Notes under the pieces: generated by a model
Databases searched by the model: none
The model's input: the letters and a program-made list of their open reading frames with translations, nothing else
What the model was told of the DNA's origin: nothing
In this document: piece after piece, positions 4,685 to 60,735 of the stretch
Position numbering within the stretch: the stretch's first letter is position 1
Layout: every line of letters begins with the position of its first letter
Program-made: the position numbers and the translations under genes
Virus record (IMG/VR): IMGVR_UViG_3300028602_000006
Direction: 5' to 3' (one strand)
Length of the DNA: 64,000 nt
Origin: a virus
Lineage: Duplodnaviria; Heunggongvirae; Uroviricota; Caudoviricetes

Positions 4685-5881
4685 ATGAGTCAAGAAAAAA
4701 TATTGGATGCTCAAGCTGTTAGAAGTGTTTATGAGAAGTTTTCTATAGATTTGCCAAATATAGGCAATCTACAGAACGTTTTTACTCCTTATTCGCTTTG
4801 CAAGGATATGATTGGACGCCTGAAGAAGTATAAGAGGAAGTTTGAAGGAGCGAACTTCTCTGTTTTTAATCTTGAATTTGCTGAAGTTTTAATGTATGAT
4901 TATGGAGTTAAGGCAAATCAGATTTGGTTCTTTACTGATTGTGTTGAGAAGAGCAAATTCGCTCAGTTGAATAGGTATGCGGGGTTGAATGTCGAATTGG
5001 TTAATTTAAGCCGATTCTTACGGGAGAAGATTACTATGAAATTTGATGTTGTTATTATGAATCCGCCTTATCAGGCCCCTAAAGCCAAAGAGCACGAAGG
5101 GAGAGGAAAATGTGGAACATCGCTGTGGGAAGATTTTGTTAGGAAATCCTTTGAATTGGCGAAAGATGATGGATATGTTTGTGCTATTCACCCTAATAGG
5201 TGGAGAAGACCCGAGGGCAAAATTGGCGAATTAATTAAGTCAAAACAAATTCATTATCTTGAAATGCATGGACTGGAAGACGGAAGGAAAACATTTTCTT
5301 GCCAAACCGATTATGATTGGTATATTGCTCAAAACAAAAAATCAGAGACCAATACGCAAGTTGTAGACTATGATGGTGAATCAAATTCAATTGATTTGAA
5401 AAACGCTCCTTTCATTCCCAACTCCAATGTGAAAGATGTTTTGTCTCTCGTCGCAAAAGAAGGAGAAGAAAAAGTCAATTTGTTATGGAACTGTGAATAT
5501 CATACTCAAGCAAGAGCAAAAGACGGAACGATGTCACCAATACAAACCGATGAATTTAAATACCCTTGTGTTTATTCTGTAACAATCAAAGGAGAAGTTA
5601 AGTTTTGGTACTCAAGCAAAAAAGAACAATTTTTTGGAATTCCTAAGGTCATATGTTGCAATGGTCATACTATGCCAATTGTTGACAAAAATGGGGAGTA
5701 CGGATTAACTCAATTCGCATTTGGAATAGCTGATAAAAAAACAAATTTAGAAAAAATACAAAATGTTATGAATTCTGATGAATTCAGGAAAACAATAATG
5801 GGTTATAGAGATAATGGTGGCAATGTTTATGACAAGAACATGATAGCAACTTTCCGCAAAGATTTTTGGAACGAAATATGA
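4685..5881 (+). CDS. N6-adenine DNA methyltransferase (NPPY) with C-terminal putative target-recognition region
   Basis: VVIMNPPYQAP is a motif IV. Upstream NVFTPYSLCKDMI is a motif X-like element. No clear FxGxG motif I in this ORF. Confidence 0.6.
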   Translation: MSQEKILDAQAVRSVYEKFSIDLPNIGNLQNVFTPYSLCKDMIGRLKKYKRKFEGANFSVFNLEFAEVLMYDYGVKANQIWFFTDCVEKSKFAQLNRYAGLNVELVNLSRFLREKITMKFDVVIMNPPYQAPKAKEHEGRGKCGTSLWEDFVRKSFELAKDDGYVCAIHPNRWRRPEGKIGELIKSKQIHYLEMHGLEDGRKTFSCQTDYDWYIAQNKKSETNTQVVDYDGESNSIDLKNAPFIPNSNVKDVLSLVAKEGEEKVNLLWNCEYHTQARAKDGTMSPIQTDEFKYPCVYSVTIKGEVKFWYSSKKEQFFGIPKVICCNGHTMPIVDKNGEYGLTQFAFGIADKKTNLEKIQNVMNSDEFRKTIMGYRDNGGNVYDKNMIATFRKDFWNEI

Positions 5882-8601: not shown

Positions 8602-9411
8602 TTGAAAGGAATAAATATGAAGATACATTTGTTGACGATTGATCCTCAGCGAGATTTCTGTAGTCCAAACGGCGCTCTTTTTGTTCAGGATGCAGATCAA
8701 GACATGATTCGTTTAGCGGCAATGGTTGACCGTTTGCGCAATAAAATTGATGATATCCACGTTACGCTGGATAGCCACAATGAAGTAGACATTGCTCACC
8801 CTATATTCTGGATTGATTCTAACGGAGCGCATCCTAATCCCTTTACTATTATTACAGAAGAGGATGTTGTCAAGGGTGTATGGACAACTACTAGGCCAAC
8901 ATGCCGCCAGCGAGCAGTTGATTATGTTAAAGCCTTAGCTTCCAACGGGCGCTACCCTCTTTGTATTTGGCCTCCTCACTGTATTATCGGTACAGAAGGA
9001 TGGACAATTCAGCAGCCTCTTGCTGACTCATTGTCAAATTGGTGCAAAGATCGCTTTAAGAAAGTAGATTATCAGGTTAAGGGTTCAAACGTATTTACTG
9101 AGCACTATAGCGTTTTCAGGGCAGATGTAATAGATCCGTCTGATCCATCAACGATGTTAAACACTGATCTCATTAAGGTTATTTCTGAAGCTGACGAAAT
9201 TTTGATCGCTGGCGAAGCAAGAAGCCATTGTGTCAATCATAGTTTTCGTGATCTTATCGGGGAACTTGGCAAGGAACACGCTCAGAAGTTCATTCTTCTT
9301 GAGGACGCTATGAGTGATGTAACGGGATTCGAAAATCTTGGAAAACAGTTTTTCGATGATATGATAGCTCTCGGCGTAAAATCAACCACAACTAAAGATT
9401 ATCTTGCATAA
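8602..9411 (+). CDS. Isochorismatase-family cysteine hydrolase (nicotinamidase PncA-like)
   Basis: N-terminal LLTIDPQRDFC (Asp of the D-K-C triad) and C-terminal GEARSHCVNHS (catalytic Cys context). Confidence 0.5.
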   Translation: MKGINMKIHLLTIDPQRDFCSPNGALFVQDADQDMIRLAAMVDRLRNKIDDIHVTLDSHNEVDIAHPIFWIDSNGAHPNPFTIITEEDVVKGVWTTTRPTCRQRAVDYVKALASNGRYPLCIWPPHCIIGTEGWTIQQPLADSLSNWCKDRFKKVDYQVKGSNVFTEHYSVFRADVIDPSDPSTMLNTDLIKVISEADEILIAGEARSHCVNHSFRDLIGELGKEHAQKFILLEDAMSDVTGFENLGKQFFDDMIALGVKSTTTKDYLA

Positions 9412-15186: not shown

Positions 15187-17250
15187 ATGTCAATTGAACA
15201 AAAAATAAGTATATGTTTCGGGCAAATTGAGGTCGCTCCCGGTCTCCCTAGGGTCAACACTGAAAAAATGTTGAAGTATATCAAAGAAGCTAAAGCTGAA
15301 GCATCGGATCTATTGATATTCCCAGAATTATGCATTCCGGGATACCTTCTTGGAGATATGTGGGAACGTCCTGATTTTCTAGAAGATTGTGAAGAATGCG
15401 GTAAGAAAATAATTGAAGCTTCTCAAGGAATAACTATAGCCTTCGGGAATGTCAAAACAGATCCTAAAAATAAAAACGAAGACGGCAGAATCCGTAAATA
15501 TAATTGCTGTTTTATAGCATCAAACGGGCAATTGGTCACAACTGTCACAAAAACTTTACAGCCAAACTACAGGGAATTTGATGATAATCGCCACTTTTAT
15601 GACAAGCGTAAGCAATTGACTGATTCATATCTTTCAGAGCCAAGTACAAAGGTTTCATTTTCTGAATTCATTGATAAGGCCTATGAGCCATCCTTAACAA
15701 TAAATGGAATTAAGATTGGATTCTTACTCTGTGAAGACGCTTGGGATACAGATTATTCATTCTCTCCTATAGATGTACTCGCACCCAAATGCGATCTGAT
15801 AGTCAATATGAGTTGTTCTCCGTTTACCATGGGGAAGAACCAAAAAAGGAACAGGCTTTTCTCTCAAAGAGCTAAAAATAATAATGTTATGATTGCCTAT
15901 ATAAATAATGTGGGCATTCAAAATAACGGGAAAACAATTTATACTTTCGATGGGAATAGTTGTCTTTATGATATTAATGGTGCGCAGTTTGACCTTTCTG
16001 CTCCTTTTGAAGAAAGCCTTGAAGTTTTAAGCTTGGATTTAGATGCTCGTACAGGATCATATGAAGAGAGCGCCATTGGTTCGTCAAGCGATGATATTGA
16101 AGATTTGTATTCATCAATTTGTTATGGAATCGAAAAATTTCTTCAGCAGATAGGAGTTAATAAAGTAGTAATTGGTGTATCCGGCGGGATTGATTCGGCT
16201 GTTGTTGCGGCGTTGTTTTCTGAAATTCTTCCTCCGGAAAATATTTATCTTATTAACATGCCTAGCTCTTTTAATTCTCAAACCACAAAAGACTTGGCAA
16301 AAGACTTGGCTAAAAATCTGGGATGTAAATATAGTATAATTCCTATTGGATGTAGTATTGATCACACTAGAGAACAATTATTAAAAGAAGGATTTGATGT
16401 TAGTAAATTCGTTTTCGAGAACATTCAGGCAAGAGATCGTTCTTCCAGAATTCTTGCGGCCATTGCTTCTTCAGTAGGCGGGGTTTTCACTTGCAACGCC
16501 AATAAGTCTGAGGCAACCGTAGGGTATACGACTCTCTATGGGGATTTGTCCGGATTTTTGTGCCCATTAGCTGACGTATGGAAGACAGACGTGTACAAGC
16601 TTGCTGAGTATATAAATGATAGTAGTGATGAGATGATCATTCCCTATGGCATACTCGCAGTTAAGCCTTCGGCAGAATTAAACAACGATCAAAATGTCGA
16701 TGAGGGGAAGGGAGACCCTATTATTTACCCCTATCATGATTTGCTATTTAGAAGTTGGGTAGAAAAGTGGGAGAGGGCAACCCCCGCTGACATTCTACAA
16801 TGGGTCATAGATGATGATTTAGAAGGGAAATTAGGCTTTGAGGATGGGGATATAGTTGCCAAGTATTTTGGAGGAGATAAAAGAGCTTTTGTTGCCGACT
16901 TGGAAAGATGGTGGAATCTATATGACGGATTTGCTTATGCGAAAAGAATTCAGGCTCCTCCTGTTCTTGCGATCAGCCGCAGAAGTTACGGATTCGATCA
17001 CAGAGAAAGTTTAACCGCTCCATTTTATAGCCAAAAATATTACAAACTTCGTATGCAATATTTGGGAGAAGATTTGTCCATGAAAGAGGTTTATGACAAT
17101 TTAAAAACTATAAAAGAGAATGTCATTTTTGTTATGGCGAAAGAAGCTGGATTAGATATGGGAAAGTTTACAACCAAGGATTTAGCTCTTAAGGGATTCA
17201 TGTCCAAGATCTATGATTTATCCGATGAAGATATGGTTCATTGGGAGTGA
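15187..17250 (+). CDS. nadE: Glutamine-dependent NAD+ synthetase (nitrilase/CN-hydrolase domain + NAD synthase PP-loop domain)
   Basis: N-domain FPELCIPGY (Glu) and LLCEDAWD (Cys). C-domain PP-loop VIGVSGGIDSAVVAAL. 687 aa, typical of the fused form. Confidence 0.8.
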   Translation: MSIEQKISICFGQIEVAPGLPRVNTEKMLKYIKEAKAEASDLLIFPELCIPGYLLGDMWERPDFLEDCEECGKKIIEASQGITIAFGNVKTDPKNKNEDGRIRKYNCCFIASNGQLVTTVTKTLQPNYREFDDNRHFYDKRKQLTDSYLSEPSTKVSFSEFIDKAYEPSLTINGIKIGFLLCEDAWDTDYSFSPIDVLAPKCDLIVNMSCSPFTMGKNQKRNRLFSQRAKNNNVMIAYINNVGIQNNGKTIYTFDGNSCLYDINGAQFDLSAPFEESLEVLSLDLDARTGSYEESAIGSSSDDIEDLYSSICYGIEKFLQQIGVNKVVIGVSGGIDSAVVAALFSEILPPENIYLINMPSSFNSQTTKDLAKDLAKNLGCKYSIIPIGCSIDHTREQLLKEGFDVSKFVFENIQARDRSSRILAAIASSVGGVFTCNANKSEATVGYTTLYGDLSGFLCPLADVWKTDVYKLAEYINDSSDEMIIPYGILAVKPSAELNNDQNVDEGKGDPIIYPYHDLLFRSWVEKWERATPADILQWVIDDDLEGKLGFEDGDIVAKYFGGDKRAFVADLERWWNLYDGFAYAKRIQAPPVLAISRRSYGFDHRESLTAPFYSQKYYKLRMQYLGEDLSMKEVYDNLKTIKENVIFVMAKEAGLDMGKFTTKDLALKGFMSKIYDLSDEDMVHWE

Positions 17251-18857: not shown

Positions 18858-20192
18858 ATGGCATCGTTAGTTGAGAAAGTACATCTGATAAAGTCTGACC
18901 CAGTAAACAATAACAATAAGTTTTGGATTGGAGAATTATATGATGATGATTCCGTGGTTTGTAGATGGGGAAGAGTCGGAGATACTGGGCAAAGTAAATC
19001 ATTCCCCAGCGGAGGAAAGAAATTTTTAGATTCAAAAGTCCGCTCTAAAAAGAAATCAGGACGTAATGGTGAAATCGCATATCGAGAAATAGAAATTATA
19101 GACGGAGCAAGCGTTCCTGCACCCAAAACATCCTCTACAAAAACTACCAGCGGTAGCCAACTATCTCAAATCGCCAAAAAGCAAATTCAAACTGGTGGTA
19201 ATCCTGAGGCACTTAAACTCATTGATTACCTTGTTAAAGTTAACGCTCATCAAATCGCAAGTATGACGGGTGGCCAAATTACTTATAACTATGATACAGG
19301 TCTTTTCCAAACTCCGATGGGTCTTGTTTCTCAGGCTAATATTGATGAAGCGAGAGATAAAATTACAGGTATTGGTGATATTGTAGCAAAGAAAAAGTAC
19401 AATGATCCTAATCTTATGGAACTTACTAGGGATTATCTTATGCTTGTCCCTCAGGATATTGGGCGTAAAAGGCTTGAACTTGATGATTTTTGGTGCGATC
19501 TAACTGCCGTTCAGAAACAGGATGCTATTCTTGACGGGCTTCAAGCTTCTTTAACGCAAGCAGCTAAAACCCCCGTAAAGTCCGTCAAAGATAATAAGCC
19601 CGAAGAGCAAATATTTCAAACTAAGCTCGAACTCGTTTCCGATCCTAAGGCGATTAAGAAAATAAAGGACTTATACCATAAAACTCGTCAGTCTATGCAT
19701 AATTGTTATCACCTTGATGTCAAAAAAGTATATACAATTGATATTAATACGGTTCAAGATGCGTTCAAAAGAGACGGCGCTAAGATGGATAATGTTTGGG
19801 ATCTTTGGCATGGGACTAGAGCGAGTAATCTACTCTCCATTCTTAAGGGCGGATTGATTATTCCGCCGTCAAATGCATCAAATGTTACTGGGCGTATGTT
19901 CGGAAATGGGGTTTACGCTTCTGATCAGTCCACAAAGGCTCTTAACTATGCTTATGGATATTGGGGCGGGGGCAAATCAGATGACAACTGCTTTATGTTC
20001 CTTCTTAAAATGGCCATGGGTAATTATTACACTCCTAAAAGTCCGTTTTCAGCTAACTCTGCTCCCAAAGGCTATGATTCCACCTTTGCACAGGCTCATA
20101 AGAGCGGGGTATATAATAACGAAATGATTGTATATAGGACATCCCAAATAAATCTTAGGTATTTGGTGGAATTTAGTCCGAATGGTAAATAA
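18858..20192 (+). CDS. Poly(ADP-ribose) polymerase-like protein (WGR domain + PARP catalytic domain)
   Basis: N-terminal WGR (FWIGELYDD...CRWGRVGDTGQ). Catalytic H-Y-E triad context HGTRASN...GIYFA-like GNGVYASDQ...YNNEMIVY. Confidence 0.75.
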   Translation: MASLVEKVHLIKSDPVNNNNKFWIGELYDDDSVVCRWGRVGDTGQSKSFPSGGKKFLDSKVRSKKKSGRNGEIAYREIEIIDGASVPAPKTSSTKTTSGSQLSQIAKKQIQTGGNPEALKLIDYLVKVNAHQIASMTGGQITYNYDTGLFQTPMGLVSQANIDEARDKITGIGDIVAKKKYNDPNLMELTRDYLMLVPQDIGRKRLELDDFWCDLTAVQKQDAILDGLQASLTQAAKTPVKSVKDNKPEEQIFQTKLELVSDPKAIKKIKDLYHKTRQSMHNCYHLDVKKVYTIDINTVQDAFKRDGAKMDNVWDLWHGTRASNLLSILKGGLIIPPSNASNVTGRMFGNGVYASDQSTKALNYAYGYWGGGKSDDNCFMFLLKMAMGNYYTPKSPFSANSAPKGYDSTFAQAHKSGVYNNEMIVYRTSQINLRYLVEFSPNGK

Positions 20193-20276
20193 AAAAGAAG
20201 AAGGGATAAATGTAATGCGAGAAGTAGAAATTTTCCCGCTCATGGAAGAACTTTGTAAATAAGATTTATTAAAAAA

Positions 20277-20408
20277 CGTCGGGTAGCTTAGTTGGGAAGG
20301 TAAATGTAACCCTGTCGTTCGTCACTCATGATATCATGATGACGACTTCAAAGCGTAGGGCAAGGAACGGCTCTAAGATCGGTGGTTCGAATCCATCCCC
20401 GACGACCA
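20277..20408 (+). tRNA. tRNA-like gene, atypically long (132 nt) with about 56-nt insertion; isotype undetermined
   Basis: 7-bp acceptor CGTCGGG/CCCGACG, discriminator A, CCA encoded. D-arm GCTT-AGTTGGGA-AGGT. Canonical T-arm GGTGG-TTCGAAT-CCATC. Central palindromic hairpin TCATGATATCATGA interrupts the anticodon region. Confidence 0.5.
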
Positions 20409-20456: not shown

Positions 20457-21629
20457 ATGATACCATTTTACCTATTGCTCATTATTTATTGCTTCGTAAC
20501 GATGTTCATCCATTTTAAGTTCCATACTATTACTTGGTATGAATGGCTGGGTGTATGTCTGATTGGATTTGCTGTAACTGGAGTATTTCATGCTATTGCC
20601 GTTCATGGAATGACGGCAGACAATGAAATTTGGTCAGGTCAAATTACACGAGCAGTTCATTATCCAAGGTGGATTGAAGAATATCAAGTCGCTATATATA
20701 AAACAGTAACACATACTCGTAGTGATGGCTCTACATATACAACATCAGAATTCTCCCATTATGAAACCCGGCATAGAACTCATCCTGAACATTGGCAAGC
20801 AGAAACATCTATAACCCGACCAAAGGAAATTGATAAAAAGTTCTTCAATGAGATTGTTCAGAATTTTGGAGATCTTACCACAGAAAAGCCTCATAAAAGC
20901 GGATTCGATAGCGGCGATCCAAACATCTATGTAGCCTATAACAAAACTGGTTATGTCTATCCCATTACTGATATTCGATCATTCAAGAACAAGATCAAAG
21001 CATCCCCATCTGTATTTAGCTTCTCTAAAGTGCCAGAAGGAACACCAGTTTATGAATATCCTTATAGTCATTGGCTGGTATCTGCACGATTGATTGGAAC
21101 TGCATCGACGGTGATTGACATAACTGAATTTGATCGTCTTAATAGCCGACTCGGGCCTACTAAGAGGGTCAATGTCATTATTGTTGGGTTCAACTCATTA
21201 GATTCTCAATTGGGTCAATGGCAAGAGGCAAAATGGATCGGTGGAAAGAAAAATGATCTCGTGATTTGTTATGGTGGAACGACTAATGCAAATTGGGCGT
21301 ATTGCTTTGGATGGACAGAACAAGAGATAGTAAAGCGAAATATTGAGACTATTTTCTTGAAATTTCCCGTAAATGATGATATACTATTAAAAATAGAAAA
21401 TGAGATTAGAAAGAATTATGTCATTAAAGATTGGTCAAAATTTGATTACATTAGAGTGGAACCACCAAGATGGGCATTCATGATATTGGTTATTATTTTT
21501 ATTGGTACGCAGGGCGGGTTATGGGCATTTGCTCATTATAATGATTTTACTGATGAAGATAGGCCAATTATATCAGCACGGGAAAGAGAACGATTAATGA
21601 AAAAATATGGTTATAGGAGAATGAGGTAA
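20457..21629 (+). CDS. Membrane protein (N- and C-terminal TM segments), hypothetical
   Basis: Hydrophobic N-terminus (FYLLLIIYCFVTMFI...) and C-terminal TM (FMILVIIFIGT). Confidence 0.4.
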   Translation: MIPFYLLLIIYCFVTMFIHFKFHTITWYEWLGVCLIGFAVTGVFHAIAVHGMTADNEIWSGQITRAVHYPRWIEEYQVAIYKTVTHTRSDGSTYTTSEFSHYETRHRTHPEHWQAETSITRPKEIDKKFFNEIVQNFGDLTTEKPHKSGFDSGDPNIYVAYNKTGYVYPITDIRSFKNKIKASPSVFSFSKVPEGTPVYEYPYSHWLVSARLIGTASTVIDITEFDRLNSRLGPTKRVNVIIVGFNSLDSQLGQWQEAKWIGGKKNDLVICYGGTTNANWAYCFGWTEQEIVKRNIETIFLKFPVNDDILLKIENEIRKNYVIKDWSKFDYIRVEPPRWAFMILVIIFIGTQGGLWAFAHYNDFTDEDRPIISARERERLMKKYGYRRMR

Positions 21630-30166: not shown

Positions 30167-30907
30167 ATGGCAACTTTTTGGTTTATTAGACATGGGGAAT
30201 CTACAGCGCAGGCCAAGCCCGATGTAATAGGTGGTAGATCTCCGGACGCCGAAATAACCACCGTAGGTGCTTCGCAAGCTAGGGCGTTGGGATACTGCTT
30301 GGGGAAGGATAAAACACTTATTGGTGGATTTGATGACCTATGGAGATCAACGCTTATTCGAGCCAAGCAAACTTGTGATCTTATGATGGCAGAGATGGGA
30401 AGTTCATGCGAGCGCCCCATGAATACCCCGTCACCAATAGTAGATTCACGTCTAATTGAACTTGATCAAGGTAAATGGCAAGGGGAAGATAGAAAAAGTG
30501 TATATACTCCGCATATGATCCAACTGATAGAATCGAATACGTTGCATTTTTGCGCTCCGGGAGGAGAATCACAATTTCAAGTAACAGAGAGAATGCTTTC
30601 TTGGTTATATGATGCTTTACGCTTGGCTAGAACCAATCGAACTTTAAGAGAATCAATAATGCCATCGTTACGCAGTTTAAATGAATCTGATTACAATATA
30701 GCAGTCGTAGGACATGGATATGCGATTAGATGTTTATTGTGCAATCTATTTGATATACCAAACCGACAGGCCTTTCATATTAAGATCGATAACTGCTCAA
30801 TTACGAAAGTAAGAATATGGAGTGACGATTTCGACCATTTGGAAAATAATCTAAAATGTAATTTGGATTGCCTAAATTTTGTGTACCCTGATGTTAAATA
30901 TGCTTGA
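30167..30907 (+). CDS. Histidine phosphatase (phosphoglycerate mutase-like superfamily)
   Basis: N-terminal RHGE motif FWFIRHGESTAQ. Second His context VVGHGYAIR. Confidence 0.6.
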   Translation: MATFWFIRHGESTAQAKPDVIGGRSPDAEITTVGASQARALGYCLGKDKTLIGGFDDLWRSTLIRAKQTCDLMMAEMGSSCERPMNTPSPIVDSRLIELDQGKWQGEDRKSVYTPHMIQLIESNTLHFCAPGGESQFQVTERMLSWLYDALRLARTNRTLRESIMPSLRSLNESDYNIAVVGHGYAIRCLLCNLFDIPNRQAFHIKIDNCSITKVRIWSDDFDHLENNLKCNLDCLNFVYPDVKYA

Positions 30908-32455: not shown

Positions 32456-33028
32456 ATGAATGAAACAAACAGAGATATTTTGAAAAACCATTTTAGTCGT
32501 ATTGATTTTGACCCTAGGTTTAAATCAGATAACATTATTTATTGGTTTGACGGAACAGAATACTCATTCTTGAGCAATTTTCATATGCACCCCATAAAAT
32601 ATAATGGGAAAGTTTATGCATCAACGGAACACGCCTTTCAAGCCGCAAAAACCCTCGATGATATGTGGAAAGAAGCTATCCGTATTACAAAAACTCCCGG
32701 AGAAGCTAAGAGAAAGGGAGGTTTATGCCCCTTGAGACCCGATTGGGAGGAAGTAAAAAATTCAGTCATGGCCGAAGTATTGGAAATAAAGTTTCAAGGC
32801 CCTTATCTACAAGACGCATTACTTAACACCTATCCGAATTATCTTGTTGAAGGTACGCTATGGCATGATAACTGGTGGGGGATTTGCCTATTGAAAGATT
32901 GCAAGAAATGTGAAGATAAGAAGGCGTTAAACATGTTAGGAATTCTTTTAATGGAATTGAGAGAAAAAATACTAACAAGACGATTACAGGAAGAGGTTGA
33001 TCTAGTTAGGGGCATTGAAGGTAATTAA
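32456..33028 (+). CDS. NADAR (YbiA-like, DUF1768) domain protein
   Basis: YWFDGTEYSFLSNFHMHPI...ASTEHAFQAAKT...WHDNWWG are hallmark NADAR blocks. Confidence 0.7.
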   Translation: MNETNRDILKNHFSRIDFDPRFKSDNIIYWFDGTEYSFLSNFHMHPIKYNGKVYASTEHAFQAAKTLDDMWKEAIRITKTPGEAKRKGGLCPLRPDWEEVKNSVMAEVLEIKFQGPYLQDALLNTYPNYLVEGTLWHDNWWGICLLKDCKKCEDKKALNMLGILLMELREKILTRRLQEEVDLVRGIEGN

Positions 33029-45612: not shown

Positions 45613-46774
45613 ATTTGAATAAAGGAAGGCTCAAAGAGTAATATGGCCATTAAAGGTCGGCATCCGACCTCCTTATAAATCAATTGGTTCATATACTCAC
45701 CATCCCTTCTGACGGGTAGCGAACGTTTGAGATAGCTCCCGTATTAATTATTGCAATTCAAGTAAATGACAATTAAATCTACAACTATATTGCCTGCTGA
45801 TTCATTCAAAATAGGAAAGAAATACTTTAAATATTTGTCTCCTCCTTCATCTTCTCTTTTGGGGGAGAATGAAGAATGGGTACTGGGGATTGTCCCTTTA
45901 AATACCTATTATATCGCTTTAAATTTTGATAGCCCTGAACATAAGGGGAGCGAGCTTAGATCAGATAGGAATCCTCCGTATAATGGGGATATGAACGGAA
46001 TGAGATGGTACAAAGCAAAATCTTAAAAATGATTAAGATGAGAATAGATTTTGAAGAAAAAAAATAAAGCTACAAAAACATGGTAGCATTATGGGATATT
46101 GTGTTGTTAAAGAAAAAAATCTATCAGGACTTATTAAGAAAGTTAATTCACTTTCTTGTGATGGATATAGGCCTGTTGGCGGAATAGCGGTTATTCAAGA
46201 ATCTGAGGTTTATCAAGTATACATGTATTATCAGGCAATGTTTAAGAAGGACGATGTATGCGCAGAAGAGTTTTAGAGATGGTCTAGTTGGGATTAATGA
46301 TTCGGAGATCACCATCAATGAATAATAGAGAAAAATCAATACAGAAAATACGACGTTGGCTTAAAAAGAATGATATGACCTATGATGATATAGGAGGCGT
46401 AGGCCAATTGTCCAAAGCATCAGATGAAATTATCTCCGAAATATTAGAAGATATAGCGGAAGATGAAGCTAAAGACATGGGCAGACGCTATGAGGAACAA
46501 GAAGCCCTAAAATATATGTCAGAAGAAGATTCGTTATGAAAACCAATCAATGATATAAGAAAAATTAGAGATATAACGGCAGAACAGGTAACAAAATGAA
46601 TAATAGATATTCTTTTGATGATTGGGGCATAGGCAGATTAAAGAATAGTGGAAGAAGCCTAACGAGTCATGATATTGCTCGTCCTAATGGCATAGATAAG
46701 TCTGATTGGTACAAGTTTGCATGTGAAGTAATCAAGATTCTTAATTCTTGTGACAAAACGAAAGAAGGTAACTA

Positions 46775-47044
46775 ATGAGAGTGGATTATGAAATTGTTTA
46801 TTTAAAAGAGGGCAAACTTTTATTCAAGCAGTTTTCCTATGAAATGGACGAAACAAATATTCCCTTTAACTCACATCTACCTGACGACGCTTATGAGTTT
46901 TATAAACGATTACATGACGCTAATGTTCCTGTAATAGTTCTTATTGGTGAATTGGAACGAGGATCTGGCTTGATAAGATATTCGGGTGCTGATCCTGTTA
47001 GTGACTTAACGACAGAAGGTAACAAAGAGGGCGAAAATGATTAA
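46775..47044 (+). CDS. Hypothetical protein ending in TTEGNKEGEND
   Basis: Its C-terminus lies in the repeated TAACGACAGAAGGTAACAAAG element. Confidence 0.4.
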   Translation: MRVDYEIVYLKEGKLLFKQFSYEMDETNIPFNSHLPDDAYEFYKRLHDANVPVIVLIGELERGSGLIRYSGADPVSDLTTEGNKEGEND

Positions 47045-47400
47045 GACGCAAAAAGAGTTATATGAGAACCTAAAAAGCATCAGAGAGAATGAAGCTCTCT
47101 CAAAATATCTTGAAGAGATATTTCAAATACTTCATAATAAGTTTAGTGACATAACGACAGAAGGTAAAAAAATTCTTGACATAGAATAAACAGAGGCTAT
47201 ATTAGTAGCAACAAAGGTAGATATGTTAATAGCTTTTATATTACTAGTATTTCTTTATGGAATACAAACATGGAGAGTTAAAAAGTGGAAGTGGAACTAT
47301 GAGCGTCTACTTAGGGATTATCACAGATTAGAAGAAAGGTATATAACGGAATAATGACTAAAAATAAACAGATTGTATAGTCAAATACATAACGACAGAA
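47007..47400 (+). repeat. Three dispersed copies of TAACGACAGAAGGTAA(C/A)AAAG at successive small-gene junctions
   Basis: Copies at 47007-47027, 47152-47172 and 47380-47400, with a partial copy at 46755-46776. Each encodes a -TTEG(N/K)K C-terminus and supplies the GAAGGT SD for the next small ORF (ATGs at 47037, 47223, 47421). Confidence 0.6.
47176..47203 (+). promoter_or_regulatory. Sigma70-like promoter (TTGACA-16-TATATT)
   Basis: TTGACA at 47176 and TATATT at 47198. Confidence 0.4.
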
Positions 47401-47501
47401 GGTAACAAAGGCGAATAAAAATGGTTGATGTATATAATTGTCAGGAAGGTTGTCATCCCTTTGCAGATTCATGTGAAGAATATATGAAATCTATGAATGA
47501 A

Positions 47502-48731
47502 CTACCCAGACACTAAAGATGTCTGGGTTTCGTGACTCGCAGGCTCGTCTAACGACAACGCCTCCTCACGTTTTTGTTTTGATTCCGACTGTATTCCACA
47601 ACCAGAATTGTAAATCATTAATCCTTGACTGAGGGCTTCGCCTGCAAGTCTCAGCCCTTGCTCCAATATATTTTTTGAAGCATTGATGTCTCTATCTAGT
47701 TTAGCACCACAAACAGGACAAACCCATTTTCTATCTTTCAATGTCAAATCCTGATTAACAAACTTACACTTGTTACAGGTTTTGCTTGAAGGGAAGAACT
47801 TATCTATTTGAATTAGGTTTCGTTCATTCCATTCCGATTTATACTTCAGTTGTCTTAGGAATTCGCTCCAAGAACAATCTGAAATACTTTTTGCTAGGTT
47901 ATGGTTTTTCATCATATTTGCAACAGATAAGTCCTCAACACAGATCGTTTGATTCTCACGAACTATTTGAGTTGTTATGTTATGGATATGATTTAGCCTA
48001 CTGTTTGTGATTTTCTCATGAACTCTAGCAACTTTGATTCGTTGTCTATTCCTACTACTTGATCCTTTTTGTTTTTTACTGAGTTGTTTCTGCTCATAAG
48101 AAAGTTTTTTAGCATACTTATTAGTAGTTTTTATGTTCTCATAGATTTTGCCATCAGAACATATTGCTAAATCTTTAATTCCTAAATCAACTCCTACTTG
48201 ATTTTTGTTCTTTTTATATGGAGCGTGTTCGGTTTCACAGGTAATAGAAACAAAATACTTACCTGATGGATTTTTGGAAATGGTTGAAAAGAGTATTGTT
48301 CCTTCAAGTGGTCTATCCTCTTTTACCTTGATGGGTTGTTTGAATTTAGGTATCTCTAGTTTCCCATTCTCATACTTAGTTGATTGAGGAATACGAAATG
48401 ATTGTTTGTCTTTCTTGGATTTGAATCGTGGGAACTTACCTTGTTTTGAAAAGAATCGGTTGTAAGCTACTTCTAAGTCTCTTAATGAAGCTTGAACTGA
48501 CTGAGAGTTAGTTTCTTTAAGCCAACTATATTCGTCTTGTTTCTTTAGCTTAGTGAGAGAGGATGCATTGTCATAATAGTTTAAAGAAGTGTTGTTTTCA
48601 AGATAGGCGTTTTTTCGTTCATTAAGAAAATGGTTCCATACAAATCTTTTAGCCCCGAAGTGTTTAGCCAATAGGACTTCTTGATCCTTAGTTGGGTATA
48701 TTCGATATTTAAATGACTTCTTTATTTTCAT
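47502..48731 (-). CDS. tnpB: TnpB (IS200/IS605-family OrfB, RuvC-like plus zinc finger)
   Basis: C-terminal CNKCKFVNQD...WVCPVCGAKLDRDINASKNI. The 3' end overlaps the perfect hairpin CCCAGACA-CTAAAGA-TGTCTGGG (47505-47527). No adjacent tnpA. Confidence 0.75.
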   Translation of the reverse strand: MKIKKSFKYRIYPTKDQEVLLAKHFGAKRFVWNHFLNERKNAYLENNTSLNYYDNASSLTKLKKQDEYSWLKETNSQSVQASLRDLEVAYNRFFSKQGKFPRFKSKKDKQSFRIPQSTKYENGKLEIPKFKQPIKVKEDRPLEGTILFSTISKNPSGKYFVSITCETEHAPYKKNKNQVGVDLGIKDLAICSDGKIYENIKTTNKYAKKLSYEQKQLSKKQKGSSSRNRQRIKVARVHEKITNSRLNHIHNITTQIVRENQTICVEDLSVANMMKNHNLAKSISDCSWSEFLRQLKYKSEWNERNLIQIDKFFPSSKTCNKCKFVNQDLTLKDRKWVCPVCGAKLDRDINASKNILEQGLRLAGEALSQGLMIYNSGCGIQSESKQKREEALSLDEPASHETQTSLVSG

Positions 48732-51042: not shown

Positions 51043-51075
51043 TTGACTAATTGAAAAGAATATGAGATGATGTTG
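51043..51075 (+). promoter_or_regulatory. Promoter-like motif TTGACTAATT-N8-TATGAGATGATGTT
   Basis: Near-identical to 53064-53095 and 55413-55440. Lies upstream of 51108. Confidence 0.45.
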
Positions 51076-55798: not shown

Positions 55799-56212
55799 AT
55801 GGAGCTAAAAAATCCGAATAGAATATTTCATGAAGAAAAAAAATATGTGTACTCTTGCCAGTATCATGTAATCTTTTGCCCAAAGTACCGAAGAAGTGTA
55901 CTAATAAATGGAATAGAGAAAAGGTTGAAGGAACTTATCCATGAGAAGCAAAAGGAATATAACTATGAAGTAATAGACATAGAAGTAATGCCAAACCATG
56001 TGCATCTTCTATTAGATATAAATCCTAAAATGGGGATATGGTCTATTATTAGCAAAATTAAAGGATATACATCTAACACACTTCGTAAAGAATTTCCTGT
56101 TCTAAGATCTAGATTACCTACACTATGGTCTGGTTCAAAATTTATCGGTACAGTCGGATCTATATCACTAGATGTTATCAAAAAATATATTGAGGAACAA
56201 AAGAACAAATGA
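55799..56212 (+). CDS. tnpA: IS200-type Y1 HuH transposase TnpA
   Basis: CQYHVIFCPKYRRSVL, HuH MPNHVHLLL, catalytic Tyr region KGYTSNTL. 137 aa. Confidence 0.85.
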   Translation: MELKNPNRIFHEEKKYVYSCQYHVIFCPKYRRSVLINGIEKRLKELIHEKQKEYNYEVIDIEVMPNHVHLLLDINPKMGIWSIISKIKGYTSNTLRKEFPVLRSRLPTLWSGSKFIGTVGSISLDVIKKYIEEQKNK

Positions 56213-57282
56213 TCCTAACTTATAGAATTAAGCACGATAGAGACTTTAGTTCAGAGCTTAGTAAGGCATTGAAAATCGCTAAGTTCGCTATTCGTACTAA
56301 ATCTCGTTCAAGTAAAGATGTAAGTTTTTTTGGTCTTAAATCAATAATATCTAACCAAATACTTAAAAAATATGCAGGCCAAAAGAACTGTAAATTAATT
56401 CACTCAGTGAAACTAACAATCCCAAATCAGGGTATTAATGTAGATCAAGAAGAGCGCATCGTCAATATTCCATGTATAAAGCTGAAACTACAATACCACT
56501 TCCCAAATAACTTCAATAAAGTCAATCAAATAGAAATAGATAATAAGTATTGTTATATATCATGCCAATTCCCCGATAAACCTGAAATCGAAATAGAAAA
56601 CTACATTGGTTTAGATAGAAATACCACTGGGCATATAGCGGTGGGAGCTATTGTCTCTACAGGTAAGGTTTATAAGTTGGGAAAGAAAGCTTATCATACT
56701 CACCGTAAGTACAAAAAAATTCGAGCACATCTACAAGAGAAAGGCGCTAAGAAAAAACTAAAAAGAATAAGAAAACGAGAGAAAAATATTATCAAAGATA
56801 TTAATCATAAAACTTCTAGAAAGATCGTTGAAATAGCTAAAGATAATAAATGCGGAATAGCTTTAGAGGATTTAAAAGGAATAAGAAAAGGCAAAAGAAG
56901 TAATAAGATAAACAAAACAGGAGAAAGTTTCAAGTCTTCCATAAATAGTTGGGAATTCTATCAATTACAGACTATGATAGAATACAAAGCCAAAATATGT
57001 GGGATACCTTTAGTATATGTTGATCCCAAATACACATCTCAAAAATGTAGTAAATGCGGACTCATTGCTAAGAATAATAGGAAACAAAAAAAGTATACAT
57101 GCACCGAATGCGGTCATGTTGATCATGCGGATGCTAATGCTGCTTTTAATATTTCAGCATTGGCATTTCAAAGAAAATCAATGAGCAATGATCAATCCAT
57201 AGCAGACAGGGATGTTATGGAAGGGAGCACTGATACCCCGCAGTTGGAAACACAACACGAGCTTATAGCGAGTGTTGCTTAA
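56209..57282 (+). CDS. tnpB: TnpB (OrfB) RNA-guided nuclease-family protein
   Basis: Overlaps tnpA by 4 nt. C-terminal CSKCGLIAKNN...YTCTECGHVDHADANAAFNI zinc finger and RuvC-III. Confidence 0.8.
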   Translation: MILTYRIKHDRDFSSELSKALKIAKFAIRTKSRSSKDVSFFGLKSIISNQILKKYAGQKNCKLIHSVKLTIPNQGINVDQEERIVNIPCIKLKLQYHFPNNFNKVNQIEIDNKYCYISCQFPDKPEIEIENYIGLDRNTTGHIAVGAIVSTGKVYKLGKKAYHTHRKYKKIRAHLQEKGAKKKLKRIRKREKNIIKDINHKTSRKIVEIAKDNKCGIALEDLKGIRKGKRSNKINKTGESFKSSINSWEFYQLQTMIEYKAKICGIPLVYVDPKYTSQKCSKCGLIAKNNRKQKKYTCTECGHVDHADANAAFNISALAFQRKSMSNDQSIADRDVMEGSTDTPQLETQHELIASVA

Positions 57283-57568: not shown

Positions 57569-57656
57569 TAGATCCACGTAGATCCACAGCATGTTTTTAT
57601 GAGAAAAAACATGTAGAAATTGAAGCATGTTTTTATGAGAAAAAACATGTAGAAAT
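57569..57656. repeat. Tandem direct repeats: TAGATCCAC x2, then 32-nt unit GCATGTTTTTATGAGAAAAAACATGTAGAAAT x2 (4-nt gap), each unit internally palindromic
   Basis: Units at 57589-57620 and 57625-57656 are identical. Each contains the inverted repeat CATGTTTTT-ATGAG-AAAAACATG. Confidence 0.7.
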
Positions 57657-59825: not shown

Positions 59826-60065
59826 ATGAAATCATCAAAATTTGCAAGGATAATGAAAGATATGGAAAATAAAAATCATAAGGTCGTTAGAGTCTCTAAA
59901 ACAGAATTTGAACTAGATACGGGAGACATTTACCCAATCCCGTTTGATTTGGGATATGAACCAACGCTAGAAGAATTCCAAAAATTTATAAATGATTCCA
60001 AGTCGCTTATATCTGAATTCATTAAAAAGTCAGAAAAGGAGAAGCGAAATGCTAGAAAAAGATAA
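59826..60065 (+). CDS. Hypothetical protein
   Basis: SD AAAGGAGTATGAAAAATG. Confidence 0.4.
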   Translation: MKSSKFARIMKDMENKNHKVVRVSKTEFELDTGDIYPIPFDLGYEPTLEEFQKFINDSKSLISEFIKKSEKEKRNARKR

Positions 60066-60735
60066 ACTCCTTAGTATGGCAGAAACTTGTTCTCTTCTCA
60101 ATGTATCCCAAGAAACCTTAAGGAATTGGGATGCTGATGGAACTCTAAAGCCAGTTAGAACAAAAGGTGGTCATCGTAGGTATAAGCAGAGCGATATTAA
60201 TTCTTACATGGGAATTAAAGAAGAAGAAATCAATAGGAATCTTCTTCCTGTTGCGACTTATGCTAGAGTGAGTAGTCATGAACAGAAACAAAAAGGCGAT
60301 TTAGATAGACAAAGCCAAAGATTGTCTGAATACTGTGCCAAAAAGAAGTATAGAGTTGAACACATTATTAAGGATGTCGGTTCAGGTCTATCGGACACAA
60401 GAAGTGGATTTAATAAATTATTTGACCTTGTAATCCAGAAAAAAGTATCTAAAGTAATTGTAGAGCATAAAGATAGATTGACTCGTTTCCAATTTAATGT
60501 ATTAGTAAGATTTTTTGAGAGTTATGGTGTTGACATAGAGAAGGTTGAGTCTACGTCTTCTAATGATGAAGAGGAATTAGTTCAAGATATTATGATGCTT
60601 ATGGCTGTTTTCTCAGGGCGACTTTACGGCAAAAGGTCAGCAAAACGAAGAAAAGAGAAAAAATTGCAGAAAGAGCTTGACTTACTCAATGGTTCTGGTA
60701 TGATGACGCCAACAGTTGAGAAAGGAATAGAATGA
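60049..60735 (+). CDS. IS607-type serine recombinase (MerR-like HTH + resolvase catalytic domain)
   Basis: N-terminal HTH LSMAETCSLLNVSQETLRNWDADG. Catalytic YARVSSHEQ, DVGSGLSD, RLTR. Start set at the ATG with SD AAAAGGAGAAGCGAAATG. Confidence 0.7.
   Translation: MLEKDKLLSMAETCSLLNVSQETLRNWDADGTLKPVRTKGGHRRYKQSDINSYMGIKEEEINRNLLPVATYARVSSHEQKQKGDLDRQSQRLSEYCAKKKYRVEHIIKDVGSGLSDTRSGFNKLFDLVIQKKVSKVIVEHKDRLTRFQFNVLVRFFESYGVDIEKVESTSSNDEEELVQDIMMLMAVFSGRLYGKRSAKRRKEKKLQKELDLLNGSGMMTPTVEKGIE

Follow-up and report, generated by a model that had tools for sequence, protein, structure and literature searches.

A stretch of 64,000 nucleotides from a Caudoviricetes virus (IMG/VR record IMGVR_UViG_3300028602_000006; the whole stretch is called the window here) contains, at 20277-20408 on the plus strand, a 132-nt tRNA-like element that raises a simple question: what is a gene that has a full tRNA shape and no anticodon? 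Codon usage and escape from anticodon nucleases are the usual explanations for phage tRNA genes, and neither of them fits such a gene. The element is a genuine, unusual phage-encoded tRNA mimic. The reading that we favour, and to which we give about an even chance of being right, is that it specifies a tRNA-derived, non-decoding scaffold RNA with the full L-shape (acceptor, elbow, T arm and CCA).

The element is a real tRNA-like RNA gene and has a G+C content of 50%, compared with 36% for the genome. With permissive filters, the Rfam tRNA model RF00005 aligned to 20277-20405 (model positions 1-71) with a score of 40.7 bits against a gathering score of 29, in agreement with a preliminary description of the locus that had proposed a tRNA-like gene. 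The corresponding E-value was 2.9e-7 in a 501-nt region and 3.7e-5 when the whole window was searched on both strands. Under these settings it was the sole tRNA-like match in the window, and a search of the window with the T-loop word returned one exact match, at 20384-20394. ARAGORN with default settings reported no tRNA or tmRNA anywhere in the window and, when run in intron mode, returned a strained tRNA(UCA); an ordinary tRNA of 76-90 nt with other boundaries, which by the preliminary description would have refuted it, was thus not seen. An Rfam scan of the whole 64 kb at gathering thresholds with fast filters gave zero matches and missed the element as well; this negative is a filter artefact, as the permissive mode recovers the 40.7-bit match. 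Standard annotation therefore misses or mislabels such genes, with ARAGORN giving none or '???' and the fast filters of Rfam dropping the match. Because both the gathering mode of Rfam and default ARAGORN miss the element, insert-bearing tRNA-like genes are systematically under-annotated.

The element reads CGTCGGG-TA-GCTT-AGTTGG-[54 nt]-A-AAGC-G-TAGGGC-AAGGAACG-GCTCTA-AGATC-GGTGG-TTCGAAT-CCATC-CCCGACG-A-CCA. The 5' strand of the acceptor stem (CGTCGGG, 20277-20283, with the pair C1:G72) forms 7/7 Watson-Crick pairs with the 3' strand (CCCGACG, 20398-20404), which is followed by the discriminator A (20405) and an encoded CCA (20406-20408). U8 and A9 (20284-20285) precede the D stem, whose 5' strand GCTT (20286-20289) pairs in the Rfam alignment with AAGC (20351-20354) in four Watson-Crick pairs. 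The 5' part of the D loop (AGTTGG, 20290-20295, holding A14, G15, G18 and G19) was aligned to the D-loop consensus, and both the alignment and the fold place A21 directly 5' of the D stem 3' strand (20350-20354 together). G26 (20355) is followed by the arm at the anticodon position (20356-20375), a variable loop of five nucleotides (AGATC, 20376-20380, with A44, G45 and C48), which is the class I size, and a T arm (GGTGG-TTCGAAT-CCATC, 20381-20397, with G53:C61, T54, T55, C56 and A58) that was identified by the alignment and by the T-loop word. The 7-bp acceptor, the encoded CCA, the GG of the D loop and the TTCGAAT T loop had all been named in the preliminary description and stood when the sequence was read again.

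With the extra nucleotides assigned to the D loop, all bases that make tertiary contacts in a tRNA are canonical (U8, A14, G15-C48, G18, G19, A21, G26/A44, G53:C61, T54-A58, T55 and C56). As a member of RF00005 the element thus exceeds the family threshold and has the acceptor, the T arm with T54-Psi55-C56, G18 G19 and the tertiary bases. It shares with class I tRNAs the 7-bp acceptor, U8, the 4-bp D stem, G18 G19, A21, G26, the 5-nt variable loop, the 5-bp T stem with TTCGAAT, the discriminator and CCA. It differs from them in about 54 additional D-loop nucleotides, so that 61 nt separate the D-stem strands where the family has a D loop of 7-11 nt, and in a 6-bp arm with an 8-nt loop, AAGGAACG, without an identifiable anticodon. 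The decoding anticodon arm of the family (5-bp stem, 7-nt loop, U33, 3-nt anticodon and purine 37) is absent.

The preliminary description had located the insertion in the anticodon region. The covariance model instead placed 55 extra nucleotides, unaligned, inside the D loop, between GCUU-AGUUGG and AAGC; the insertion of about 54 nt (20296-20349) lies between G19 and A21, at position 20, and the anticodon arm is replaced separately. The D arm proposed earlier, GCTT/AGGT, turned out to be a weaker alternative with two G-U pairs, while the D stem of the covariance model, GCTT/AAGC, is fully Watson-Crick. A cloverleaf constrained to carry the D-loop insert had a folding energy of -40.8 kcal/mol compared with -42.0 kcal/mol for the unconstrained minimum free energy structure, in which 20310-20314 pairs with 20356-20360, a gap of 1.2 kcal/mol. 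When 20296-20349 (element positions 20-73) was removed, the minimum free energy structure of the remaining 78-mer was a perfect cloverleaf. The core of the insert is an imperfect hairpin (20319-20345) whose tip carries the perfect 14-nt palindrome TCATGATATCATGA (20326-20339), so that the palindrome noted earlier in the insert was real. D loops naturally vary in length at position 20, and a hairpin there could project away from the elbow and leave the L shape unbroken.

The palindrome motif was not over-represented in the window (8 matches with at most 3 mismatches, 8.3 expected), and no second copy of the insert was found in the window or in any fetched locus. The insert was considered as a repeated or mobile element and this was rejected, as it is single-copy and has no similarity to the D-loop inserts of four other tRNA-like loci (L022, L034, L037 and L067).

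An intron-containing tRNA had been among the options of the preliminary description. In its simplest form this would mean that some endonuclease cuts out the 54-nt D-loop insert and that a ligase, for example the T4 Rnl1-type enzyme of the phage, rejoins the ends to give a 78-nt RNA that still lacks an anticodon. The perfect cloverleaf obtained by deleting 20296-20349 agrees with this, as does the Rnl1-family RNA ligase that the phage encodes (7102-8343). A further parallel is a tRNA-Arg(UCU)-like gene in another viral contig (L067, ~5650-5870; also L121), which has the normal anticodon loop CUUCUAA and carries about 150 nt behind AGUUGG, at the D-loop site that is also interrupted in the window; there, removal of the insert would be needed for decoding. 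Against an intron, an exhaustive scan of the 132 nt found no bulge-helix-bulge (BHB, 3-4-3) motif at the insert borders, and the one BHB-like geometry in the element, with bulges at 38-40 and 86-88, would on excision take the 3' strand of the D stem with it. No Rfam ribozyme, group I (Intron_gpI) or group II match was obtained at the element region at E <= 10, and none was found in L067, of which Rfam recognised the 3' part alone (26.6 bits). Moreover, 54 nt is far below the size of self-splicing introns, and an outward-pointing hairpin at the variable position 20 would be structurally tolerable unspliced. Excision of the insert is consequently improbable in our view, and the earlier option is unsupported: BHB, ribozyme and group I signals are missing, and an anticodon loop is still lacking after removal of the insert. 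Archaeal and red-algal tRNAs with BHB-dependent D-loop introns resemble the element in having an intervening sequence in the D loop of a tRNA-shaped gene. They differ from it in that here the borders carry no BHB, the phage is of bacterial type with Shine-Dalgarno (SD) usage, and no anticodon appears even after removal. A tRNA with a bacterial group I intron was also rejected, since the insert measures 54 nt, where a group I core takes about 200 nt or more, lies in the D loop and not in the anticodon loop, and gives no ribozyme match.

A different intron was proposed by ARAGORN with the -i option, which returned a tRNA(UCA) labelled 'SeC(tca)' in which a 38-nt intron separates position 31 from position 32. 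In this model the D stem (GCUU/AGGU) and a 4-bp anticodon stem contain two G-U pairs each, and the downstream AAGGAACG hairpin becomes a long variable arm. If it were true, the gene would encode an opal-suppressor or Sec-like tRNA with the loop CUUCAAA, which does carry U33 and A37; also, in three other loci (L131, L134 and L135) the AAGGAACG hairpin truly lies in the variable region of a tRNA-Gln(UUG). The UCA anticodon arises, however, solely after removal of the 38-nt 'intron' at 31/32, a position without a known splicing system in bacteria, and chance alone should produce a YUNNNRN heptamer about once per 16 positions. In addition to the G-U pairs, the anticodon stem has an A-A mismatch, the spliced form does not fold into a cloverleaf, and the D-loop-insert cloverleaf is better than the ARAGORN model by 3.5 kcal/mol. 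The gap between hairpin and T stem is 5 nt, as in class I. There is no sign that TGA is recoded: 23/67 open reading frames (ORFs) of at least 100 aa end with TGA, and reading through TGA changed the mean ORF length from 233 to 236 aa. We regard the model as very improbable; its folding energy, the quality of its stems and the lack of signs of TGA recoding led us to reject a suppressor tRNA(UCA) with an intron. A tRNA-Sec was rejected on geometry, which is 7/5 and not 8/5 or 9/4, with a D stem of 4 bp and not 6.

The arm at the anticodon position (20356-20375) consists of a 6-bp stem, TAGGGC/GCTCTA with one G-U pair, and the 8-nt loop AAGGAACG (20362-20369), as seen in both the Rfam alignment and the fold. 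The loop contains no U at all, and hence no U33, and has no purine 37. The spacing of the arm is exactly that of class I, as it begins after G26 and ends 5 nt (AGATC) before the T stem. The earlier failure to fold a standard anticodon arm was therefore correct. As judged from its sequence, the RNA cannot decode in any known way, because the loop lacks U, purine 37 and a definable anticodon.

The 8-nt loop could in principle suggest a quadruplet-decoding (+1 frameshift) tRNA that reads UUCC by means of a 4-base anticodon GGAA. Frameshift-suppressor tRNAs likewise have 8-nt loops, ARAGORN labels homologous cases as having 4-base anticodons (ggaa in L136, gaaa in L001), and GAA is present in all these loops. 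In decoding loops, frameshift suppressors included, U33 and purine 37 are near-universal; here position 33 is A and position 37 is C. The stem lengths fit no better: it has 6 bp in the window and just 2 bp in L033, and the 'loop' of L001, a locus from a relative of the window phage with an identical T arm, closes further to give a stem of 8 bp capped by a GAAA tetraloop. The tRNA of L131 has an anticodon of its own and carries the AAGGAACG hairpin as an insert in its variable arm. Quadruplet decoding thus has, in our opinion, hardly any likelihood. A GGAA tetraloop closed by A.G and A.C mismatches is another possible reading of the window loop, in which case the arm would have the length of that of L001.

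The AAGGAACG loop was found in other phages. Exact matches to AAGGAACG located 2-20 nt upstream of a T loop were collected, and the same was done for two composition-matched control 8-mers. In viral contigs the AAGGAACG loop was closed by at least 4 bp in 9/24 distinct matches, compared with 0/88 for the control AGAGCAAG and 1/79 for the control GACAAGAG (in each case among the matches listed). In contigs of cellular genomes, 2 of the first 120 matches to AAGGAACG were closed by at least 4 bp and none by at least 5 bp, and the cellular matches lay mostly in apparent coding regions. Loops of 8 nt at the anticodon position occurred in 9 of the 767 sampled viral tRNA-likes (~1%), with otherwise diverse sequences.

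Besides the window, the AAGGAACG loop was present on covarying stems in L033, L136, L163, L165 and L131/L134/L135. In L136, L163 and L033 the hairpin is at the exact place of the anticodon arm, separated by 1 nt from the D stem and by 5 nt from the T stem; L033, where the loop stands on the 2-bp stem, was found by a search for the T arm only and hence independently of the motif. The hairpin of L165 is on a more divergent body. In L131/L134/L135 it takes the form AGAG-AAGGAACG-CUCU and replaces the 5-nt variable loop of a tRNA-Gln(UUG) of 89-91 nt that is otherwise normal. Across seven sequences the loop was invariant, compensatory double changes occurred in 6/6 stem pairs and 88% of the cells were paired, a result that 0/500 shuffles reached. 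As far as these scans and alignments go, they show the AAGGAACG loop to be a recurrent, virus-specific module. We define here a group of phage tRNA-scaffold RNAs with AAGGAACG hairpin by a helix-closed loop, a canonical T arm and a tRNA-shaped body, and the window arm at 20356-20375 fits this definition, as do the loci listed above. Full-text searches of the literature gave no account of the AAGGAACG loop motif, nor of phage tRNA mimics of such a design that lack an anticodon.

For the favoured non-decoding scaffold we infer that the element is expressed, processed, stable and functional in binding. It would be co-transcribed with the rightward gene array and excised by host RNase P and 3' processing enzymes, which need the acceptor, T arm and elbow alone, all of them intact here. 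It would then accumulate as a stable RNA of ~132 nt and display two added hairpins, the D-loop hairpin off the elbow and, at the place of the anticodon, the 6-bp arm tipped by AAGGAACG. Instead of bringing an amino acid to a codon, such an RNA may bind a protein or RNA partner through the loop, occupy a tRNA-binding site, or both. A specific molecular partner is argued for because the exact 8-nt loop is common to unrelated phages and absent from cellular controls. The option of the preliminary description that comes closest to this reading is a tRNA-derived regulatory RNA, of which the tRNA derivation agrees and the regulatory function stays putative.

The sequence of the loop gives some indication of what such a partner might recognise. 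AAGGA, which lies within AAGGAACG, occurs at -10 to -14 of 16/79 start codons in the window; it is 6-fold enriched there and is the commonest SD-type word. The loop therefore looks like the ribosome-binding site of the phage itself, presented in a hairpin. Because it holds this word, candidate partners would be those that read GGA-containing ribosome-binding sites, namely the 16S 3' end, CsrA-type proteins and SD-cutting nucleases. An antisense target of the loop was rejected, as both matches to the complement CGTTCCTT are the reverse strands of AAGGAACG sites.

A broader proposal, which we consider possible and put forward tentatively, is that AAGGAACG hairpins on tRNA bodies, whether they take the place of the anticodon arm or sit in the variable loop of a genuine tRNA-Gln, are an undescribed functional RNA module of large phages. 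The tRNA body would give processing, stability and access to tRNA sites, and the SD-like loop would capture a factor of host or phage, such as the 16S 3' end, a regulator of the CsrA type, or a nuclease or defence protein that recognises ribosome-binding sites. The window element would then be a member with a D-loop hairpin as an added elaboration. In practical terms, the AAGGAACG loop offers a concrete bait for pull-down. Were the element functional, a class of tRNA-mimic effectors would be added to the phage-host conflict.

Several results weigh against a functional scaffold. In the closest relative, L158, whose neighbour protein is 87% identical and whose NAD synthase, PARP and ORF follow one another in the same order, the slot of the element is occupied by a 79-aa ORF, and the element is for this reason dispensable or recently gained. 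None of the collections searched yielded an orthologue that bears the insertion. Neither a sigma-70-like promoter on the plus strand nor a terminator was found flanking the element, the complement CGTTCCTT was not enriched in the transcripts of the window, and the AAGGAACG-bearing loci, which are on unrelated contigs, had no common neighbouring protein. The partners named above are guesses. The motif statistics, finally, come from exact-pattern scans with lower-bound counts and two control words, and part of the covariation set was picked for having a stem.

Absence from the closest relative would also be expected if the element were a decaying pseudogene, that is, a former phage tRNA that lost its anticodon loop, gained a palindromic insertion and now has no function. 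It is single-copy, the 64 kb contain no other tRNA-like gene and it has no decoding ability; furthermore, aberrant tRNA-likes are common in viral contigs. Random decay, on the other hand, would not be expected to leave the acceptor (7/7) and the D stem (4/4) Watson-Crick, the T arm perfect, the tertiary bases in place and a clean 6-bp helix, nor would it account for an identical 8-nt loop on covarying stems in unrelated phages, which was not seen with control words or in cellular genomes. Simple decay is disfavoured because of the intact tRNA core, the clean replacement of the anticodon arm and the loop shared by unrelated phages, and we hold it to be doubtful. The degraded tRNA that the preliminary description had offered as one option is weakened accordingly, as all tertiary-contact nucleotides are kept and the loop recurs in other phages.

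A tRNA shape might alternatively serve as RNA-processing punctuation: it would recruit RNase P and the 3' enzymes, the rightward transcript would be cut between the PARP-like gene and the downstream gene ORF390, and the excised RNA would be a by-product. The element is intergenic in a gene array on one strand with no promoter or terminator nearby, and canonical features are confined to the parts needed by RNase P, with the anticodon arm left free to vary. In addition, ordinary tRNAs lie immediately upstream of the ORF390 homologue in the relatives L146 and L171. Punctuation alone leaves unexplained, however, the exact 8-nt loop common to unrelated phages and the kept D stem, D loop and tertiary bases, and the closest relative does without the element. 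This role is unlikely in our estimate.

Among known RNAs, the nearest precedent for the non-decoding scaffold comes from phage T4. Species 1 RNA (rnaC, 139 nt) and species 2 RNA (rnaD) are stable RNAs of the T4 tRNA region with unknown function (PMC3014915, PMC9697503). Like the element, rnaC belongs to the T4-like lineage and to a tRNA region, has no anticodon and is of comparable size (139 nt, against 132 nt for the element). Its T arm is CCGGG-UUCGAAU-CCCGG, its 5' and 3' ends are paired, and it has a hairpin of ~65 nt at the place of the D arm and a second hairpin before the T arm, which is the module order of the element. In contrast, the sequence similarity between the two is limited to the 11-nt T-loop word; the Rfam tRNA model fails to recognise rnaC, in which the acceptor is imperfect, neither a D stem nor G18 G19 can be made out and the AAGGAACG loop is lacking. 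Sequence comparison detected no homology of the element to rnaC or rnaD. By this comparison rnaC is an analogue and not a member of the same family, and the likeness is architectural. The known kind would be the stable RNAs of phage tRNA regions, and the recurrent loop module is possibly new. A functional element would give hints on what to test for T4 RNAs C and D, and, if the module proposal were true, a first functional handle on the 50-year-old question of the roles of the T4 'species 1/2' RNAs.

In YrlA RNAs (RF02553) the acceptor is closed and the ends lie in a Ro-binding stem at the place of the anticodon stem; the ends of the element, by contrast, form an acceptor with CCA. YrlA is similar in being a non-decoding RNA with a tRNA-like D/T elbow that is found in some phages (PMC7824862). 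It was rejected as the identity of the element, as there was no RF02553 match on it at E <= 10 and its ends form the acceptor. No TROVE/Ro domain was found in the scan of 40 window ORFs of ~120 aa or more. The tRNA-like domain of tmRNA shares an acceptor and a T arm without anticodon, but the element has no tag reading frame or pseudoknots and keeps a full D stem; tmRNA was rejected, as both the ARAGORN tmRNA search and Rfam were negative on the element.

Aberrant tRNA-like genes were not restricted to those with the AAGGAACG loop. An exact T-arm search of viral contigs gave 121 matches, of which 38 (about one third) were not called by ARAGORN. These 38 include L033 and L067, described above, as well as L034, L022 and L037. 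L034 (Rfam tRNA, 41.6 bits) has a D-loop hairpin insert together with a 6-bp stem and UCCG tetraloop at the anticodon position, and L022 (40.1 bits) has a D-loop insert of ~45 nt with a 6-bp stem and GUAA tetraloop at that position; the architecture of the window element thus recurs, which speaks for the scaffold reading. In L037 a long insert follows the GG of a GCUU/AAGC D arm. L008 and about 20 near-identical loci (for example L009, L017, L025 and L042) have two tRNA-like units in tandem, in which acceptor, D and T arms are present but just ~12 nt stand at the place of the anticodon arm, and units of this type were very abundant among the T-arm matches of viral contigs. A tRNA-like gene at 1944-2020 of a 607-kb viral contig (L126) has the anticodon-position hairpin GGUCCGGAAGGAA, which appears to match the tip of helix 8 of the E. 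coli 4.5S (SRP) RNA over 13 nt. In the 112-nt tRNA-like gene of L107 the insert at the anticodon position, AAGGAG-ATG-GGG-AAA-TAA-TAG, looks like a ribosome-binding site followed by a 3-codon ORF and a double stop. L001 also carries, at 651-724 on the minus strand, a tRNA with anticodon CUA that looks like an amber suppressor and is labelled Pyl by ARAGORN; the window showed no sign of TAG recoding.

The window has a G+C content of 34-38% and nearly all its genes are on the plus strand. Directly upstream of the element is a gene for a WGR-PARP protein (18858-20192), which abuts it, and which the closest relative keeps without the element; between the two lies a 15-codon ORF (20215-20262, MREVEIFPLMEELCK) with the SD-like word AAGGGA. 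Directly downstream is ORF390 (20457-21629), which encodes a conserved 390-aa protein without a Pfam match that is identical to a protein of an NCBI metagenome-assembled genome labelled Synergistaceae. Relatives of this protein are encoded on contigs with the T4 Gp23 capsid protein, the T4 prohead protease and a CCA-adding enzyme. The source of the window is a large T4-like phage, as the 390-aa relatives sit beside the Gp23 and prohead protease genes. Upstream of the ORF390 homologue, L146 has an abutting tRNA-His and L171 an array of nine ordinary tRNAs, and in L001 this place is taken by the odd tRNA-like gene described above. None of the protein-anchored loci (18 metagenome, 1 viral, and 9 contigs from protein matches) carried the element, a DNA pattern of the D-loop-insert architecture gave 0 matches in viral contigs, and neither the locus nor the element had a BLAST match among 50,697 phage records. 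The T4 late-promoter word TATAAATA was not enriched.

Further upstream, the window encodes the T4 Rnl1-type RNA ligase mentioned above; T4 Rnl1 repairs tRNAs that have been cut by anticodon nucleases. A set of genes related to NAD and ADP-ribose comprises a glutamine-dependent NAD synthase (15187-17250), the WGR-PARP protein, a histidine phosphatase (30167-30907), a NADAR protein (32456-33028) and a weak isochorismatase-like match (8602-9411), and as predicted from these matches it suggests functions in NAD replenishment and ADP-ribosylation.

The right part of the window contains two TnpB/IS605-OrfB-like ORFs (47502-48731 on the minus strand and 56209-57282 on the plus strand). Four 29-nt direct repeats, TTAGTGACnTAACGACAGAAGGTAAC, spaced by 145-251 nt, lie at 46747-47409, right beside the first of these ORFs. 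An ORF at 59992-60735 with a MerR-type helix-turn-helix and a serine resolvase domain resembles an IS607-type transposase. At 57588-57620 and 57624-57656 a 33-nt sequence is exactly duplicated in tandem, and it includes the inverted repeat AGCATGTTTTT..AAAAAACATGT. Lastly, the arrangement TTGACTAATT-N12-ATGAGATGATGTT is present in three copies about 2 kb apart, at 51043, 53064 and 55413, which are possible regulatory sites.

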